Assembly: GCA_963693055.1 (NCBI GenBank)
Contig: OY843751.1
Span: 4,864,001-4,928,000, forward strand
DNA: 64,000 nt
Source: a bacterium
GTDB taxonomy: Bacteria; Zhuqueibacterota; Zhuqueibacteria; Residuimicrobiales; Krinioviventaceae
Direction of reading: 5' to 3'
The notes beneath the pieces were generated by a model, which ran no database searches, had not been told where the DNA came from, and saw nothing but the letters and a program-made list of their open reading frames with translations. The translations under genes and the position numbers were made by a program. The first letter of the stretch is position 1; each line of letters starts with the position of its first letter. Below are positions 36,658-62,613 of this stretch, one piece after another.

Positions 36658-38418
36658 TTATTCGTTTGATTTTGTACTACGAAACGCAGCCAGTACATCG
36701 TTTTGACTGATTATCCCCAACAGCATGGATGAATTTTCATCATCAATGATGGGTAAATATGTAACATCGCTGTTTTGCTTGAAAATTTCCAAAACTTCGC
36801 CTAATGTCTGGTCCGGGTAAAGCGCCAAAGGTTCGGGCTTTACAAGGTCACGCGCCACAATAAACTTTGCAATGCTTTCATCAAACAAGATATCGCGAAT
36901 ATCCTGATAATCTACAACACCAATAAATTTCTCATTACGATTAATAATAGGAAACCGGTCATATTTACTGTGAGAGATCTGACGCAATATTTCATTAAAA
37001 GGTGTATCTTCGTACAAGGTTTCAACATTTTTGCGCATTACATGTTTTACATATATATCGGCAGCACTTTTGAGATTATGTCCTTTGGGTACACCAATAG
37101 AGGTTCTGAACTGGTCAATAACATGATGCAGGCCTTCATAGGTACCTTCTTTGGCTTTTTTTGAAAGCAGGGTCAACAAGGGCACCTCTCCTGCATGTAC
37201 AAGGGCCTGACGAACTGTAATGGGTCCGGCAAGTTCAAAAAACACCACGGAACCCAGAATAACGGTCTGAATGATCTCTCCGCCTTCTGGCCACTGACGG
37301 GCAAGAGATTGCGACAATCCAATAGCAACACCCGCCTGGGCAATCATTGCATATCCCAGCCAGCGCCGCTCAATGTATCCAAAATCTCCCCATTTGGCGC
37401 CCATCCAGTTTCCCAACACTTTACCGGCGGTGCGCATAATGATATATGCAATACCCAGCAAACCAATGTCTTTCATCACTTCTATATGCAGACTTGCACC
37501 TGCAATTACAAAGAAAAAGACATACAGGGGATAATCGACACTTTTTAACGCTTCAAATAAATTCCGTTCTTTGGGAGAGGCATTTACTATGGTTAATCCC
37601 GTAACAAAACAAGACAAAAAGATATCCAGTCCCCACATCCATGACAATCCAATATTCGCAACAATACCGCCAATAAGCAGCATCAGGTATTCTGTACGAC
37701 TCTCAACATTCTGCGCCCATACACTAATGAGCACACCGGTAAGGAAGCCCAAAACGATGGGGCCAAACATGGCAAGCAAAAACAATGTTACAGAGCCACT
37801 GCTGTTGAGAAGTAAGAATGTAATGATGTTAAAGATCAAAATTGAAAACAGATTATTTAATCCGATCAGTGAAAGCGCAAGGTCCGTTACCGGGCCTTCG
37901 GAATCATATTCACGGATCACCATTAATGACGCTGCGGGTGCGGTTGCAATTGCTATAATACCGGTAAATATGGCCAAATAAATTGAAGATCCCAATAAAC
38001 CTAATGACGCGCCCAAAACAGTCTTGTTGAGCAGCATATTAAACACAAATATGGTGATGGAAACCAGGATAAAAGTAGCTGCCATTTCTGATAAAGATAG
38101 CCGGGCCATACGTTTGCCCCAGCGTCTGAGGGATTGGAACTTGAACTGACTTCCAATGGTCAGCATAATAAAAGCCAGCGCAACATCAGAGATTATTTTT
38201 ACAAATTCCAACACTTCATGGCTGATCAGCTCGGGGTAACCCAGCATATGCGCCATCGACGGGCCTGCTGCCAGGCCTACCAGTAAATAACCGGTAACCC
38301 GGGGAACACGTAAACGTGCGGCAACACGACCAAAAATCAACGCTGCCAGAAAGCAAATACCGGTAGAAAACAAAGTATGGTTAATGTGCAGGTCCAATTC
38401 AAATTCCGAAATAGTCAA
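36658..38418 (-). CDS. Cation:proton antiporter with C-terminal CBS pair
   Basis: About 12 TM helices, IATAPAA, QAGVAIGL; two CBS domains (FPIIN...GVV; LPIID...GII). Confidence 0.88.
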   Translation of the reverse strand: MTISEFELDLHINHTLFSTGICFLAALIFGRVAARLRVPRVTGYLLVGLAAGPSMAHMLGYPELISHEVLEFVKIISDVALAFIMLTIGSQFKFQSLRRWGKRMARLSLSEMAATFILVSITIFVFNMLLNKTVLGASLGLLGSSIYLAIFTGIIAIATAPAASLMVIREYDSEGPVTDLALSLIGLNNLFSILIFNIITFLLLNSSGSVTLFLLAMFGPIVLGFLTGVLISVWAQNVESRTEYLMLLIGGIVANIGLSWMWGLDIFLSCFVTGLTIVNASPKERNLFEALKSVDYPLYVFFFVIAGASLHIEVMKDIGLLGIAYIIMRTAGKVLGNWMGAKWGDFGYIERRWLGYAMIAQAGVAIGLSQSLARQWPEGGEIIQTVILGSVVFFELAGPITVRQALVHAGEVPLLTLLSKKAKEGTYEGLHHVIDQFRTSIGVPKGHNLKSAADIYVKHVMRKNVETLYEDTPFNEILRQISHSKYDRFPIINRNEKFIGVVDYQDIRDILFDESIAKFIVARDLVKPEPLALYPDQTLGEVLEIFKQNSDVTYLPIIDDENSSMLLGIISQNDVLAAFRSTKSNE

Positions 38419-38532
38419 TGATCTGTTTGTTAAACATAGACATTCCCGACTAAATAATCAAGATTTATTAAACCGGAACAGGAAATGCGTGGGAAAAGAT
38501 GATGGATGGCAATTGTATATCAAAGCCCTAAA

Positions 38533-38550
38533 ACAAAACGCAAAGAACGC
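38533..38550 (+). repeat. Direct repeat, left copy (ACAAAACGCAAAGAACGC)
   Basis: 17/18 identical to 43041-43058; the two copies bracket the TIR/SLOG-patatin/Ivy region. Confidence 0.45.
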
Positions 38551-38639
38551 AATATCAGATCGTAATTTTGTAGTAAGGTAAGGGTGAAGTTGAGTTTGAC
38601 AGTGGATTTGGATTTTCACTTAAAAGATTAAATGGATTA

Positions 38640-39533
38640 TTAAAAATTACTATTATTTTTATCAACACATTTTAAAAGCTTCTTACGCCTCATCTCCATC
38701 TTCTTCTTCAATTGCTTAGTCAAAATACTACCGATTAAAGGAATTTTCGATAATCTTTTCCATACAATTGAAGCTGGTAAATCGGTAATAATTGTTGGAT
38801 GACCAGGTGAAATCTTATCAGCTTCTTTAAAATAAAAAATTGATTTTTCAAAATTCATAATTCTAAAATAGTAAATACCTAAATGGAAATTAGTTAAAAA
38901 GTCATCACTTCTTTTTGTTTTGATCTGTAATAAACATTTTATTGCATTTTCATAATCGCCGAGCGAACCCCATATATCCGACTTAATTTGTAACACACGA
39001 ATGTCATCACACAGTTCGTCATAATTCAACAAATTTAATGCATCGCTAAAATTGCCATTATCATAAAAACGTCTAGCTTTTGTTACTATATGGTTCAAAT
39101 TAACTACTTTTGAAACTTTATTGAATATTACAGACGCAACATTTTCAATATTTTCTGTAGAAACTTTCAAATAACTAACGGTTGGCAAAAGTCCAGGTAA
39201 ATCTGATTCATCAATACGCAATGGGATAATGTAATCCGAATCAGGTTCTTCTAATGCTCTTGCTTGTGCTGCTCGCCATTCATGAAGTGTCCATCTCTTT
39301 TCCTTATATGATTGAGAAATCAATATTATACAATAACTAGCCTTATTCATATATATATCGATTAAATATTCAGTTAAATTCTTCCCGAGAAGCTTTGCCT
39401 GCTCATAATCATCATAGAAAACACTTAAACCATGATTGATATAAAGTTTTTTAGCTAATAAGTGTGCTATTTCCCTATCTTCACCTGCAAATGAAATTGC
39501 GATATCATACTCGATCAATATTATTTCCTTCAT
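38640..39533 (-). CDS. TIR domain protein with C-terminal TPR repeats
   Basis: YDIAISFAGEDR, VFYDD, IILISQSY, WTLHEW (catalytic Glu position), IIPLRID; TPR-like GDYENAIKCL, FHLGIYYF...FEKSIFYFKEADKISP. Confidence 0.88.
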   Translation of the reverse strand: MKEIILIEYDIAISFAGEDREIAHLLAKKLYINHGLSVFYDDYEQAKLLGKNLTEYLIDIYMNKASYCIILISQSYKEKRWTLHEWRAAQARALEEPDSDYIIPLRIDESDLPGLLPTVSYLKVSTENIENVASVIFNKVSKVVNLNHIVTKARRFYDNGNFSDALNLLNYDELCDDIRVLQIKSDIWGSLGDYENAIKCLLQIKTKRSDDFLTNFHLGIYYFRIMNFEKSIFYFKEADKISPGHPTIITDLPASIVWKRLSKIPLIGSILTKQLKKKMEMRRKKLLKCVDKNNSNF

Positions 39534-39586
39534 TGAATTTCACAGCGCTTATCTCAACCAACAAAACCAAAATTTTTAAAAAAAAA

Positions 39587-41281
39587 TTATTTATATCTAT
39601 CCCATGGAATTGCTGTCACTCCATTAAGGAATCTAGATTTGATTTGCCCAAGAATATTAACATCAGACGCAACATGCTGACCAAGATCCGCAAGCTCATG
39701 AATTTCAGCAGGTGAATCGAGACGATAAGTATTAGGCATTGTTATTGTATTAACTCTTAGAAAACGAGGCTCTCCCAACAACAGCTTGGTTTGTTTCAGC
39801 GATGATTCTTGTTGAACATTCATCAACAAGTTGAGTATCTTTTTTTCTCGTAACCAACCAGTTATTCCAGAATCAATTTGGTTTCTAACAGTAAAAGGTT
39901 CGTCAGTTGTTCCAACACTCAAAACATCAATCCTTTCAAGTGGGATTCGAAGAAAACAAACTGATTCAATCACAGCAGCTAAAGCTGGAGAATTCGCCCA
40001 AACTCCTCCATCGAAAAACCTGCTTTCCGTGAGCATATTTGAAATTTTAGCAGCTGTAAAATATGTCGGTGCAGCTGCTGTAGCAAGAGCAATATGGGCA
40101 ACTTCAGTATTTGCATCTAAAGTTAATTCAGGATGATGTGGAGTACGAAAAAGGTGTGAAGCTCCAGCAATGGCATGGTAAGTTGGTATTACCAATCGAC
40201 AACATGAATCTTTCATCCTTTTTTTTACACCACTAAAATAATATGCAGATTCTAATTCTTTCAATAATACTGATTGAGCAAATTTGGGTCTATATAAATG
40301 TTTGGTCTTATGCCTTAGTCTACCCAATAATCGAGTCAAAGGGAAAATAATAGGACCTTTATTTATATAAAAATCAAGAATTTGCTTGGCAGACAATCCA
40401 ATTCCTAAACCAATTGCGAGAATCCCTCCTGTTGAAGTACCAGCGATTAGATCAAAATGATCTGTAATACGTAATCCAGTTTGATTTTCCCAAGTTGCAA
40501 GAGCAGCAGCACTAAATGCCCCCTTTAAACCACCACCATCAAGAGCCAATATTCTAAATGAAACACCTTCTGAGCCACTTCCTCGAACCAAGGGCAATCT
40601 CTCGAGTTGTGAGCAAACCTTTTTAGTTATACTCTCGACATCTGTAAGTATAGAGATTTGACGATTTGTATCAATATCAAAACCATTTTTGAGATAGTTA
40701 AATATATTAGGATTATTTTGAATTAAATCATGTGCAGCTCCACCAAGTCCACCCAGCAAGAAACATGGCAATCCTTTTTCAATCGCATAATTGAGTTCTT
40801 TCGGGATTCCTGCTTTCTCTGCTAATGAAAACCACCATTTACCACCTACAACAACAATAACATCACATCTAGCCACCATCCATTCTCTAAGTAATTCTAA
40901 ACTAACTTCTCGAGCGTTTTCTCCTTTTGCTTCAGGTGTTTCATATACTACAGCATACTTTCTCCATTCAGCAATAGGAACAACTCCTGTATCCTTCGAC
41001 CATAAACGTGAAACTGCAAGAACTAAAGCATCTTTACGTCCACCTTTCTTCTGGTAAGATCTTGACTCTTCTAAAAGAATTGGTGTAAAACTTGGATGAC
41101 TTCCATGAATGATGTGCCCTCCATGCTCAAATACATATCGAGATATAAAACGAACAAAATCCACAATTGTTTTTCTCTCTAAATCAGTAGAGTTCTGCTC
41201 CTCAGGAATAGAACCTGACAACCAGATGCGTGCACCTGATAGAGATTTATAATGATGAACGCCATCTTTTTCATCAGGCAT
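39587..41281 (-). CDS. SLOG domain-patatin-like phospholipase fusion (putative defence effector)
   Basis: N-terminal about 230 aa SLOG-like (IWLSGSIP, IIHGSHP, SLELLREWMVARCDVIVVVGG, GIPKELNYA, LLGGLGGAA); C-terminal patatin with DGGGLKG, GTSTG and DGG motifs. Confidence 0.88.
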   Translation of the reverse strand: MPDEKDGVHHYKSLSGARIWLSGSIPEEQNSTDLERKTIVDFVRFISRYVFEHGGHIIHGSHPSFTPILLEESRSYQKKGGRKDALVLAVSRLWSKDTGVVPIAEWRKYAVVYETPEAKGENAREVSLELLREWMVARCDVIVVVGGKWWFSLAEKAGIPKELNYAIEKGLPCFLLGGLGGAAHDLIQNNPNIFNYLKNGFDIDTNRQISILTDVESITKKVCSQLERLPLVRGSGSEGVSFRILALDGGGLKGAFSAAALATWENQTGLRITDHFDLIAGTSTGGILAIGLGIGLSAKQILDFYINKGPIIFPLTRLLGRLRHKTKHLYRPKFAQSVLLKELESAYYFSGVKKRMKDSCCRLVIPTYHAIAGASHLFRTPHHPELTLDANTEVAHIALATAAAPTYFTAAKISNMLTESRFFDGGVWANSPALAAVIESVCFLRIPLERIDVLSVGTTDEPFTVRNQIDSGITGWLREKKILNLLMNVQQESSLKQTKLLLGEPRFLRVNTITMPNTYRLDSPAEIHELADLGQHVASDVNILGQIKSRFLNGVTAIPWDRYK

Positions 41282-41768
41282 ATTTACCCCTTATCTCAAT
41301 TGCCTTCTCAACCCAATCTTCAAGATTCTTTTTTATATAATCATAAACATAGGTACTTGTTGAATAGGGAGGATTATATGATTTCACAATATTTGCCATA
41401 TTTTCACCATCAACTGTGTATGCAGAAAAGGGATTGCTTCCCATTGATGATTGATTTTCATCCCTATCTTTCAAATTGTGGATGTAAATCCCAAGTAATC
41501 CTTTTCCCTCTTCCCATGCTCTCTTAATTTCATATTTAATCCATTTTCTTCCCGCAGTTTTTGAACCGATTAAGACAATAACAACAGATTTACCTTTAAG
41601 CTGTTCATTTATCCATTTCTCTATGTCACCATCTCCCCCCTTCTTAATTGTCTCCCAATCATTATCCGAAACAGGTTTGTTACCTTCTATAACGCCCATA
41701 TTTCTAACTTGAGATGCCCGCCAATTATCGGGGATATAATGAAAACTATAAAACGCTTTTCGTGCCAT
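41274..41768 (-). CDS. thsB: ThsB-like TIR protein (DUF1863/MTH538 type)
   Basis: GGAG RBS then MARKAFYSFHY, WRASQVRN, VVIVLIGSKTAGRKWIKYEI (catalytic Glu), GLLGIYIH, WVEKA; stop overlaps next start by 8 bp. Confidence 0.88.
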   Translation of the reverse strand: MARKAFYSFHYIPDNWRASQVRNMGVIEGNKPVSDNDWETIKKGGDGDIEKWINEQLKGKSVVIVLIGSKTAGRKWIKYEIKRAWEEGKGLLGIYIHNLKDRDENQSSMGSNPFSAYTVDGENMANIVKSYNPPYSTSTYVYDYIKKNLEDWVEKAIEIRGKYA

Positions 41769-42057
41769 TATTTTCTCCAAATAATAATTTAATTTATTAA
41801 TTTTAAAAGCAGAAACCCTCAAAGCTTGTAAACTATATATTTAGAAAGCTAAAAGTTTTATATTAGTTATAGCATAAAGCACTTAATATAAGATTTAAAA
41901 TCTTAATAATAATATTAGTCCACCCAAGAATCCCCAAATCATTTTCTATTTACAACTATAATAAACTAATCATTAACAAACAAATCAAGAGAATTTTAAA
42001 TCTTATACAAATTTAATCCTATATTCCTTTAAATCCCATAAATCTTAATTCAGACAA

Positions 42058-42939
42058 TTACTCCGCATGCTCTGCGCGGGTTTGATTGATCAATCCAAAT
42101 ACATCCTGATTAACATCCACATCTTTTTTATAATACAACTCGTTAACAATATCCGGTCCCTCTCTGGTGAAAACCGCAGCATATACATCAAGACTGTTCA
42201 GATCAATATAAACATCTGCAAAGTGGTCACCACAATTGTGGGACTCGCATCCTTTCAGCACCAGAAAACCATCCTGTATCGCTACAGGCATCTGTACACC
42301 AAATGCGGTTTTGAACGCGTCACATTGATCACCCAGGATCTCTTTTAAAGTATCTTCCACCCCTTCTACCTGCGCCAGCACTTGGTTAGGATATTGGGAT
42401 ACATACCCCGCAAGCGTTTCCGCGGTCAAAGCCTCGGATTGGAGTTGAAAAGGATCATCATCGGTTTCCGTCAAAAAACCCTGTACATATTTCCAGCGGG
42501 ACAACACCTGTCCCAGTTCATCACATTCCGCGATTTCAATCACATCACCAGAGCCTTCTACATAACCCTTTGTGATTCGGTAAAACCAGAATTCCAGCTC
42601 TCCCAGCATTTGATATGATGAATCATCGTAAATGCCTATCACCCGTAAAATCGGGGGAAAACAATTGCCGCCCTGGTGTTCTGACATAATGATCACATCT
42701 TCATCGCCATTCACCCCAGGGAAAAAAGCCTCAACCATGCCCATTCCATATTCACCGTCATTGATCTTGTAAACCTCTTGCGAATTGAGTTTAACTAAAA
42801 GATTCATCCCATTGATTTCCGCAATCTCGAATTCCCCACCAATGGTATTGATTTTTACAGAATCCTCAGCATACACAGTGCTTGTATGAGGTATTATCCA
42901 AATCAAAAGAAATATAAAACCCAATCTCCATGCTCTCAT
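42058..42939 (-). CDS. Exported protein with C-terminal Ivy-like (lysozyme inhibitor) domain
   Basis: Signal peptide; acidic protein; GCESHNCGD resembles the Ivy CKPHDCG loop. Confidence 0.55.
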   Translation of the reverse strand: MRAWRLGFIFLLIWIIPHTSTVYAEDSVKINTIGGEFEIAEINGMNLLVKLNSQEVYKINDGEYGMGMVEAFFPGVNGDEDVIIMSEHQGGNCFPPILRVIGIYDDSSYQMLGELEFWFYRITKGYVEGSGDVIEIAECDELGQVLSRWKYVQGFLTETDDDPFQLQSEALTAETLAGYVSQYPNQVLAQVEGVEDTLKEILGDQCDAFKTAFGVQMPVAIQDGFLVLKGCESHNCGDHFADVYIDLNSLDVYAAVFTREGPDIVNELYYKKDVDVNQDVFGLINQTRAEHAE

Positions 42940-43040
42940 GCAAAACTCCGGAAACAGTTGATCATTTTTATAAAGTTACAAAATTAATGGATCAAAAAAC
43001 ATGCCTGTTTTATTAACTTGACGCGAATTGTGATTAAAAG

Positions 43041-43058
43041 ACAAAACGCAAAGTACGC
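43041..43058 (+). repeat. Direct repeat, right copy (ACAAAACGCAAAGTACGC)
   Basis: 17/18 identical to 38533-38550. Confidence 0.45.
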
Positions 43059-43155
43059 CAAGAGGTCGCCAGGGACGCTGAGGGAAAGCTCATTCTCTGC
43101 GCTCATTTCTAAATTGCTTCCGATGAAAACAACACGACCAATACCATGATAACGA

Positions 43156-43450
43156 AATCCTGGGCATCATTGAATCCTTTAATCATGGTTCAGATCGTGA
43201 CGGAGTTAAGCGTCAGCGGTCTCCGTCACGGGAAACCTTTTTTCTTGAGTGATCCATACTTGCAAAATAATAAACATCTTGCACAACGGAGATCACTACG
43301 TTTATCTCCGTTGCGATCATTTCTTTTTGATAGTGGTAAAGTTAATCTCCAGCGGTCTCCGTCACGGGAATCATGTAATCTTGTTCATCCTTCAATCTTG
43401 GTTATAATCCTCTACTCTAATCCTTTCAATCATGGTTTTAATCAAGGTTT
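43156..43450. repeat. REP-like hairpin cluster
   Basis: GATC-CGTGACGGAG...CTCCGTCACG hairpin (43193-43230), inverted related copy (43284-43318), 21-bp repeat CAGCGGTCTCCGTCACGGGAA (43214, 43350), several AATCC/AATCATGGTT units. Confidence 0.7.
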
Positions 43451-43548
43451 TCATCACGGTCAAAAATAATATCAGGGTCTCTAACTTTTTCCTTGTACTC
43501 TAGTCTGTTTTTTCGTTTCTTTATGAAAAACAATGGAGAGATAAAAAC

Positions 43549-61963: not shown

Positions 61964-62613
61964 CTGACAGCTATCAGTATCTAATTTTCAGTAGTCAGTC
62001 TTCAGTGATCAGAAAAAATCAATGCCTGCACCCTGATCACAACACAGATGTCTGTATCGCGGAATATTATACTGAGACATCCGCCCCTAAAGATTCTCCC
62101 CCTATTCCTGAAACAATCAACAAACCCCATCTGTGTTTCATCCGTGTCGATCCGTGGCTAAATCTTATACCCATGACGGAGAACACTATCGTTTATCTCC
62201 GTCACGATCTAATTTATTCAGTGATCAGAAAAAATCGACGCCTGCACCCTGATCGTGACACAGATGTCAGTATCACGGAACATTATACAGAGACAGTTAT
62301 CCTGTCCATCTGTCGTCGGACAATCCTCAAGTGTGATCTACAAGTTTATTCATTTTTTGTAGAACGAAATTTATTTCGTTTGTACGCCCAAAGTATACTT
62401 GAATTCTATCAAATCCTGATCGCGACACAGATGTCTGTATCGCGGAATATTATCCAGTAACATTTATCCCGAAAAATTATCTCCCCAATTCTTAAAACAA
62501 TCAACAAATCCGATCCGTAGCAAAATCTCAACACACATGACGGGAAACACTATCGTTTATCTCCGTCACGATCTAAATCTTTACTGATCACTGACAACTG
62601 ATAGCTGATAACT
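61962..62613. repeat. Composite REP/MITE-like repeat element
   Basis: Three GATC-hairpin copies (62032-62070, 62248-62286, 62415-62453), two inverted copies of the 43.2-kb hairpin family (62174-62209, 62538-62573), one GTAG-AACGAAAT-TT-ATTTCGTT palindrome (62359-62380), imperfect terminal inverted repeats. Confidence 0.75.

Follow-up and report, generated by a model that had tools for sequence, protein, structure and literature searches.

The window analyzed here, 64,000 nucleotides of contig OY843751.1 (positions 4,864,001 to 4,928,000 of the forward strand; assembly GCA_963693055.1) from a bacterium of the family Krinioviventaceae, contains a candidate antiphage cassette of three minus-strand genes: a ThsB-like TIR gene, a gene that fuses a SLOG domain to a patatin lipase, and a TIR-TPR gene (table 1). 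The co-orientation and AT richness of these open reading frames (ORFs), their motifs, the 8-bp overlap that places the start of the fusion over the stop of the TIR gene (41274-41281), and the 53-bp gap between the fusion and gene 3 are all present as the initial annotation claimed. The gap is counted from the annotated start of gene 3; an alternative TTG start at 39518, which has a better ribosome site, gives a protein of 292 amino acids (aa) and a gap of 68 bp, and the database version of the TIR-TPR protein, also 292 aa, matches this start. Guanine-plus-cytosine (GC) content is 0.356, 0.376, and 0.300 in genes 1, 2, and 3, respectively, 0.338 across the cassette region, and 0.394 in the genome; the slot that holds the cassette is among the lowest 4% of the genome's 3.5-kb segments.

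Table 1. Features of the cassette and of related loci (coordinates without a locus name are those of the window)
Feature	Coordinates	Strand	Details
ThsB-like TIR, gene 1	41274..41768	-	164 aa from ATG; SFHY, WIKYEI; WxxxE W76/E80; predicted signal-making enzyme
SLOG-patatin fusion, gene 2	39587..41281	-	564 aa; predicted effector
SLOG domain	40583..41239	-	residues ~15-233; G23, S24, H59, P63, R132, G146-G147-K148, G158, E162
CapV-like patatin domain	39629..40564	-	residues ~240-551; oxyanion loop G249-G251, S283 (GTSTG), D424 (DGG)
TIR-TPR, gene 3	38640..39533	-	297 aa; SFAGED, WTLHEW; WxxxE W81/E85; second TIR, variable; an extra sensor by prediction
Cassette slot (variable)	38508..42013	.	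flanked by genes for a cation/proton antiporter and a 293-aa protein
Fusion inside or beside type III operons	L103:5427-12101; L116:5751-11947; L104; L106; L054		ThcB4, ThcA above or near cut-off; several TIRs
E2-branch loci	L003, L004 (e.g. L004:4612-5913), L005, L067, L071, L073, L075, L079, L080, L081, L028, L029

Gene 1 matches ThsB_TIR in Pfam (PF08937, 7.7e-27), ThsB in PADLOC (1.1e-74), and BcThsB (6LHY, 1.9e-19) and 8WCF (4.9e-44). The fusion matches the Pfam families Patatin (9.6e-23), SLOG cluster2 (6.9e-13), and STALD (4.7e-7), and gene 3 matches TIR_2 (PF13676, 1.9e-17) and TPR_8 (1e-5). Both TIRs carry the WxxxE motif, which has been described as tied to cyclization of ADP-ribose (ADPR). 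In Pfam, PADLOC, and NCBIfam scans, the three proteins matched no family of SIR2, Macro, caspase, or CD-NTase (cGAS/DncV-like nucleotidyltransferase), consistent with the reported absence of SIR2, Macro-TM, caspase, and CD-NTase genes from the cassette. The 6.5-Mb genome has only three TIR matches (two to PF13676 and one to PF08937), of which two are on either side of the fusion, suggesting that the association is more than chance. Two contig sets from one sample cover positions 37500-43500 with zero differences, but they are possibly the source of the window and hence not independent confirmation. A scan for promoters was at chance level (19 vs. 17.4 expected) and found no terminator.

Two Conserved Halves of the Fusion

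An AlphaFold2 model of the fusion (predicted local distance difference test score, 80.8; predicted template modeling score, 0.86) has two domains. For residues 15-233, the best SLOG structural match is the SLOG domain of BcThsA with 3' cyclic ADPR (3'cADPR; 7UXS; Z 15.2, root-mean-square deviation 3.1, 181 residues aligned at 19% identity), in agreement with the SLOG fold claimed by the initial annotation. In an alignment to 7UXS, R132, G158, and E162 of the fusion correspond to ThsA R371, G399, and E403, which are described as binding 3'cADPR (10.1101/2022.05.07.491051). Across 57 fusions of <70% identity drawn from a set of 92, these residues are kept in 56, 56, and 57 sequences, respectively. 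The position of ThsA G289 is also matched; an equivalent of Q359 could not be mapped.

The SLOG domain is closer still to ThcA of type III Thoeris, with an HH probability of 95.9% and 28% identity over 182 columns (four ThcA sequences), and its motifs recur in ThcA. Since its identity to ThcA (28%) exceeds that to the SLOG of type I (19%), the glycocyclic ADPR (gcADPR) of type I systems, on which the initial annotation had drawn, is not established as the signal. The leading candidates are a type III-like or a 3'cADPR-like molecule. Reading the signal from the TIR sequence was considered and rejected, since a single TIR cluster is described as common to types I, IV, and V and the signal is therefore not predictable from it.

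The lipase half is likewise as first claimed, and both halves are intact and conserved. Residues 238-564 match the lipases of antiphage signaling systems based on cyclic oligonucleotides (CBASS) in structure (9KH6, Z 38.1; AbCapV 8ZR9, Z 36.3), the fusion scores 243 bits against NCBIfam NF041079 (cut-off 200), and catalytic S283 and D424 are each kept in all 57 diverse fusions. The score against the DS2 antiphage phospholipase (NF053870) is 82.4 bits, below its cut-off of 400. R379, D389, E439, and L377 align with AbCapV K149, D159, E207, and F147, which are listed among the ligand-site residues of AbCapV (PMC12480259), and R379, D389, and E439 are invariant across 98 close homologs. The stacking Phe of AbCapV, F147, is Leu here and Phe in only 2 of 57 fusions. 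In a lipase tree, fused lipases group with CBASS lipases, apart from housekeeping patatins. This tree was built quickly, its branches are long, and it has 3 CBASS rows; three fusion and two standalone rows are absent from it, and it fixes no origin for the fused lipases on the sequences compared.

Full-length fusions form a conserved family. The best 120 database matches listed, excluding the query itself, are all full-length fusions of 62-72% identity covering 94-100% of the length. A SLOG profile built from 60 sequences retrieved 422 clusters (clustered at 50% identity) with E values of 1e-10 or lower; of 61 clusters scanned for domains, namely entries of about at least 300 aa among the 150 listed of the 422, 29 have a patatin domain and three are TIR-SLOG fusions. 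Fused proteins are named "CBASS cGAMP-activated phospholipase" in the database, a label that is probably wrong for the family. Variants seen in passing include a double SLOG with patatin (P0122, 795 aa), a fusion with an extra response-regulator domain (P0103), and TIR-SLOG fusions of about 625 aa (P0244, P0254, and P0269).

TIR Partners and Arrangements in Related Loci

The initial annotation had called for a survey of the neighborhoods of SLOG-patatin homologs, and the association with TIR genes bears out its expectation. We compared 85 loci, comprising six genome loci less one lipase-only remnant and the 80 best among 94 from metagenomes; 72 have the fusion, nine run into a contig end, and four are SLOG-only or broken. 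The fusion has a TIR gene within 1.5 kb in 57 of the 72 (45 of 59 after dereplication at 90%), and in 27 of the 31 nonredundant loci flanked on each side by 1 kb or more, 16 of the 31 having at least two TIRs. In the close clade, a TIR is nearby in 43 of 48 loci and in one further by PADLOC. One carrier among 400 randomly drawn genomes (G542) has five TIR genes around its fusion.

Neighboring TIRs belong to many families, the commonest being that of gene 1, and E80 of gene 1 is invariant in all 39 aligned neighbor TIRs. Their position relative to the fusion varies: upstream, downstream, on the opposite strand, or separated by an E2 gene. Such varying order and spacing fits a diffusible signal. 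The 8-bp overlap of TIR and fusion recurs in six other loci, which suggests coupled translation.

What is conserved is not the three-gene form put forward in the initial annotation: the window's TIR-TPR has no match in any of the 85 fusion loci and was rejected as a conserved third component. As far as these sequences indicate, the conserved unit is one or more ThsB-like TIRs plus the fusion, and the TIR-TPR is probably an exchangeable sensor, one among several that would broaden the range of phages. The TIR-TPR family itself is coherent, with 54 of 93 other matches covering at least 78% at 39-59% identity and the W and E of WxxxE invariant in 29 of 29, and in Pantoea, a TIR domain related to the TIR-TPR (33%) is upstream of a fusion. 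Other candidate Thoeris effectors are seen beside the fusion, PDC-M50A at L062:4049-4498 and DUF2270 on a TIR-STAND ORF at L028:1211-4486, which fits TIR arrays that serve more than one effector.

Three further arrangements, an association with type III Thoeris, a split form, and an E2 branch, are features of relatives that are absent from the window. Thirteen plasmids have a full fusion and in 12 of them ThcB4 is within a few kilobases, but 11 of those 12 are close enterobacterial copies (92-100%) and thus represent few independent events; 17 of 29 ThcB4 plasmids are without a full-length fusion. In Escherichia coli ATCC 98082, a Tn7-like element has the order TIR, TIR, fusion, TIR, ThcB4 (452 bits), ThcA (252 bits), TIR. 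Carrier G542 has the same design and its operon is probably from the same lineage; metagenome locus L054 also combines the fusion with the type III design.

In the split form, on Gloeothece plasmid NC_011732.1 (L113:280-2349 and L107:114-1103), a TIR-SLOG (cluster2) gene is immediately upstream of a standalone lipase, which the lipase tree places with a fused lipase (support 98). The locus continues with a 5-hydroxymethyldeoxyuridine kinase-like gene, a MazG-like gene, and a ThsB-type TIR. In the E2 branch, a C-terminal tail with a terminal PW motif (mostly NPPKPW) is seen in 12 of the 65 ThsB-type ORFs, and an E2-like gene is directly downstream of 12 of 12 tailed TIRs versus 0 of 53 others, counts that are not dereplicated and include kin. 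The E2-like gene matches the PADLOC CBASS E2 (1e-34), has a SEC-C-like Cys motif and 198 database matches, and its protein model has weak matches to UFC1 and a Serratia E2 (E 0.002-0.02). No E1 or JAB was found in these loci. The tailed TIR with E2 is a candidate for an E2-only Thoeris parallel to E2-CBASS.

Fusion neighborhoods were also searched for CD-NTases. Three CD-NTase queries had no match in the complete window genome or in 578 kb from 89 fusion loci; the same queries found each other in control loci, and divergent CD-NTase clades could be missed. The SMODS profile matched nothing in the window genome or in five other carrier genomes, and no nucleotidyltransferase family was matched among 128 neighbor and comparison proteins. 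These results extend the reported lack of a CD-NTase beyond the cassette. Standalone relatives of the lipase adjoin a (DncV-like) nucleotidyltransferase in three of the four records examined, the fourth being the split form. The slot in the window has three genes only, and no CBASS, Pycsar, pAgo, or Avs family was matched in it.

A Probable TIR-Triggered Lipase: Proposed Mechanism, Alternatives, and Known Systems

We suggest that the cassette is probably a Thoeris-type antiphage system in which an ADPR-type signal made by a TIR is bound by the SLOG domain and switches on a CapV-like phospholipase. This reading rests on the observed genes, domains, folds, residues, TIR association, patchy distribution, and lack of a detectable CD-NTase, from which, and from type I Thoeris and CapV, we infer function. 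Infection would be sensed by the TIR proteins, with the ThsB-like TIR as the core partner of the fusion. The activated TIR would convert nicotinamide adenine dinucleotide (NAD+) to an ADPR-derived signal, and the 564-aa fusion would bind it through its SLOG domain. By analogy with ThsA and CapV filaments, the fusion is then predicted to oligomerize and its lipase pocket to open, and hydrolysis of inner-membrane lipids would damage the membrane and cause abortive infection.

Several observations weigh against this reading. At the level of sequence, the alignment of the SLOG domain with 7UXS is weak (E 0.18). Pocket positions also differ from those of ThsA: S290 corresponds to Ser in 35 of the 57 fusions and to Ala in 20, L326 aligns with the invariant Pro of an H-G-S-H-P motif, and the K388 equivalent is shifted by one residue. 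In the lipase half, the CapV ligand pocket is retained in part, with E439 kept in 53 of 57 fusions, R or K at position 379 in 43, and D389 in 28. TIRs are common in defense islands generally, and TIR labels were derived partly from the same loci in which they were counted. In the distant clade (SLOG identity <46%), a TIR is nearby in 2 of 11 loci, most of which are short contigs. Two distant-clade loci with full flanks, L091 and L096, have no clear TIR (L096 has a weak match to the ThsB profile), which counts against a universal TIR link. A reverse transcriptase and Avd-like genes of the diversity-generating retroelement type adjoin the TIR-less fusion in the former (L091:6583-8360).

The retained CapV pocket raises the possibility that the TIR signal, or a product that the SLOG domain makes from it as a LOG-like glycosidase, fills the adenine pocket of the lipase, or that both pockets are needed. 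Such a variant would remain a TIR-triggered lipase defense. The invariance of R379, D389, and E439 among close homologs and the wide retention of E439 argue for it, as do the contacts of AbCapV K149 and E207 with adenine, a part of ADPR derivatives, and LOG enzymes are next in the fold ranking of the SLOG domain (5AJT, Z 13.3). We nonetheless consider it unlikely, because the Phe of the stacking position and the Asp at 389 are far less conserved than the SLOG pocket residues (56-57 of 57), the best fold match is the sensor ThsA, and an equivalent of AbCapV R279 could not be mapped in the fusion. It is also quite improbable that there is no diffusible signal at all, with a TIR binding the fusion directly, or with TIRs depleting NAD while the SLOG-lipase senses the change in NAD or ADPR or acts in parallel. 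The recurring 8-bp overlap and the coupled translation that it suggests would suit direct contact, and the TIR itself may be the NAD-depleting effector in some unverified Thoeris types, according to a preprint (Yirmiya et al., 10.64898/2025.12.03.692087). But the many unrelated TIR families and their varying order are hard to reconcile with one binding surface, and the cassette and neighbor TIRs match ThsB profiles.

The target might instead be a plasmid, a competitor, or a stress response rather than phage, or this copy might be inactive in its host, whose relatives lack the cassette (the SLOG profile matched none of the phylum's 166 other genomes). The open frames, the intact motifs and ribosome sites, and the location of relatives among defense and mobile genes argue against this alternative, which in either form we regard as very improbable. 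Lastly, the fusion could be a CBASS effector switched on in trans by a CD-NTase elsewhere, with the TIR genes mere island neighbors. The NF041079 score above cut-off, the grouping with the CBASS lipases (three rows), and the partial ligand pocket would be expected from such an effector. The failure to detect a CD-NTase in the complete genome, in five other carrier genomes (SMODS), or in 89 loci makes this the hardest of the alternatives to credit. TIR signaling to the lipase through the SLOG domain is the reading that we prefer.

Compared with known systems, the cassette is Thoeris-like in the broad sense that a ThsB-type TIR with its catalytic Glu is beside a candidate effector, yet on sequence it fails the defining tests of type I (SIR2), type III (ThcA/ThcB4), and CBASS (CD-NTase). 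It shares with type I Thoeris a ThsB-family TIR, the SLOG fold, the equivalents of R371, G399, and E403, and the use of several TIRs per effector. It differs in having a patatin where ThsA has SIR2, to which nothing in the cassette matched, in an N-terminal SLOG of the cluster2 type, and in the L326, S290, and K388 positions. With type III Thoeris it shares multiple TIR genes (two in the window) with a SLOG protein. But ThcA is SLOG only, whereas the window SLOG is fused to a lipase and scores 35.2 bits against NF058525 (cut-off 110). ThcA had no match in the window genome by tblastn, and ThcB4 (NF058526), which is above or near its cut-off in L103, L104, and L116, had none in the cassette or the window genome. 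Relative to CapV and CapE of CBASS (8ZR9, 9KH6, 9IOM), as described in PMC12480259, the lipase has the same fold, the Ser-Asp dyad, and part of the ligand pocket. However, CapV is a single domain paired with a CD-NTase, whereas the window lipase is fused to SLOG and accompanied by TIRs instead.

The proposed novelty of the system holds in part. No characterized SLOG-patatin Thoeris was found, and the literature search returned no description of a SLOG-patatin fusion with TIRs, the supplements of SLOG surveys being outside its reach. However, TIR plus phospholipase operons had already been predicted as a class. The preprint of Yirmiya et al. (10.64898/2025.12.03.692087) lists 29 putative Thoeris types with "phospholipases" among the predicted effectors; of the verified types V-XI, none is described there as a phospholipase, and type XI is an unspecified "hydrolase". 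Those predictions resemble the cassette in having a TIR gene beside a phospholipase gene. The main text of the preprint, on which alone this comparison is based, is without "patatin" or a SLOG-lipase fusion. The fusion may be among the predictions that the preprint does not verify, and the system has probably been predicted in outline already. What is new is the likeness of the SLOG domain to ThcA, the fusion inside type III operons, the split TIR-SLOG and lipase, and the E2 branch.

These findings allow a bolder extension, which we regard as possible but doubtful: that the killing enzyme of the type III Thoeris lineage is the SLOG-patatin, which would recognize, through a homologous pocket, the TIR product that ThcA reads. 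The system would be a Thoeris-CBASS hybrid with a CapV-derived effector that possibly takes a second nucleotide input, and in one branch the TIR would be regulated by a CBASS-type E2. The type III signal is described as uncharacterized in the same preprint (10.64898/2025.12.03.692087). Having the pocket motifs of ThcA and an easily assayed predicted lipase, the fusion could report that signal, and if it reads the signal that ThcA reads it would give a direct lipase read-out for purifying the molecule. If the proposed pathway is true, a lipase output is added to bacterial TIR signaling and a CBASS effector has been rewired to an NAD-derived signal through gain of a SLOG domain. The natural version in E. 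coli (NZ_CP034659.1, 204904-211578) makes testing straightforward.

Insertion Slot and Distribution

A genome of the same genus (G001; DNA 86-92% identical) aligns with the window up to position 38507 and again from 42014, and is without the cassette. Its slot has palindromic repeat arrays and a Y1_Tnp transposase of the type associated with repetitive extragenic palindromic (REP) sequences. Long REP-like arrays and Y1_Tnp filling the same slot make the site look like an insertion hot spot. A CRISPR array was considered for these repeats and rejected because the units are palindromic and beside the Y1 transposase and the spacers are repeated. In a genome of the same family (G004), matches to the antiporter gene are closely followed by matches to an MFS gene, with nothing resembling the cassette between. 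No flanking repeats suggestive of an insertion sequence or attachment site were found around the cassette.

Matches to the SLOG profile are sparse in other samples as well: 0 of 300 genomes sampled around G171, 1 of 400 sampled around G167 (carrier G542), and none among 50,697 phage records. In E. coli, a version of the fusion is present in 4 of 5426 genomes. Relatives of the fusion are located among restriction, AbiEi, and Tn7-like genes. Together with the slot that is empty of the cassette in relatives, the sparse matches suggest a rare insert that was probably acquired horizontally.

The 293-aa gene that borders the slot (42058-42939) encodes a hydrophobic N-terminus and has no Pfam, PADLOC, or NCBIfam match. 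It is present in G001 and unmatched in the region examined of G004, and is placed outside the cassette. REP-like palindromic repeats are also present at 43189-43375 and 62170-62210 of the window and at L021:9365-12150. Between about 43000 and 46000, the steadily negative GC skew gives way to a skew near zero, coinciding with a switch in gene strand.

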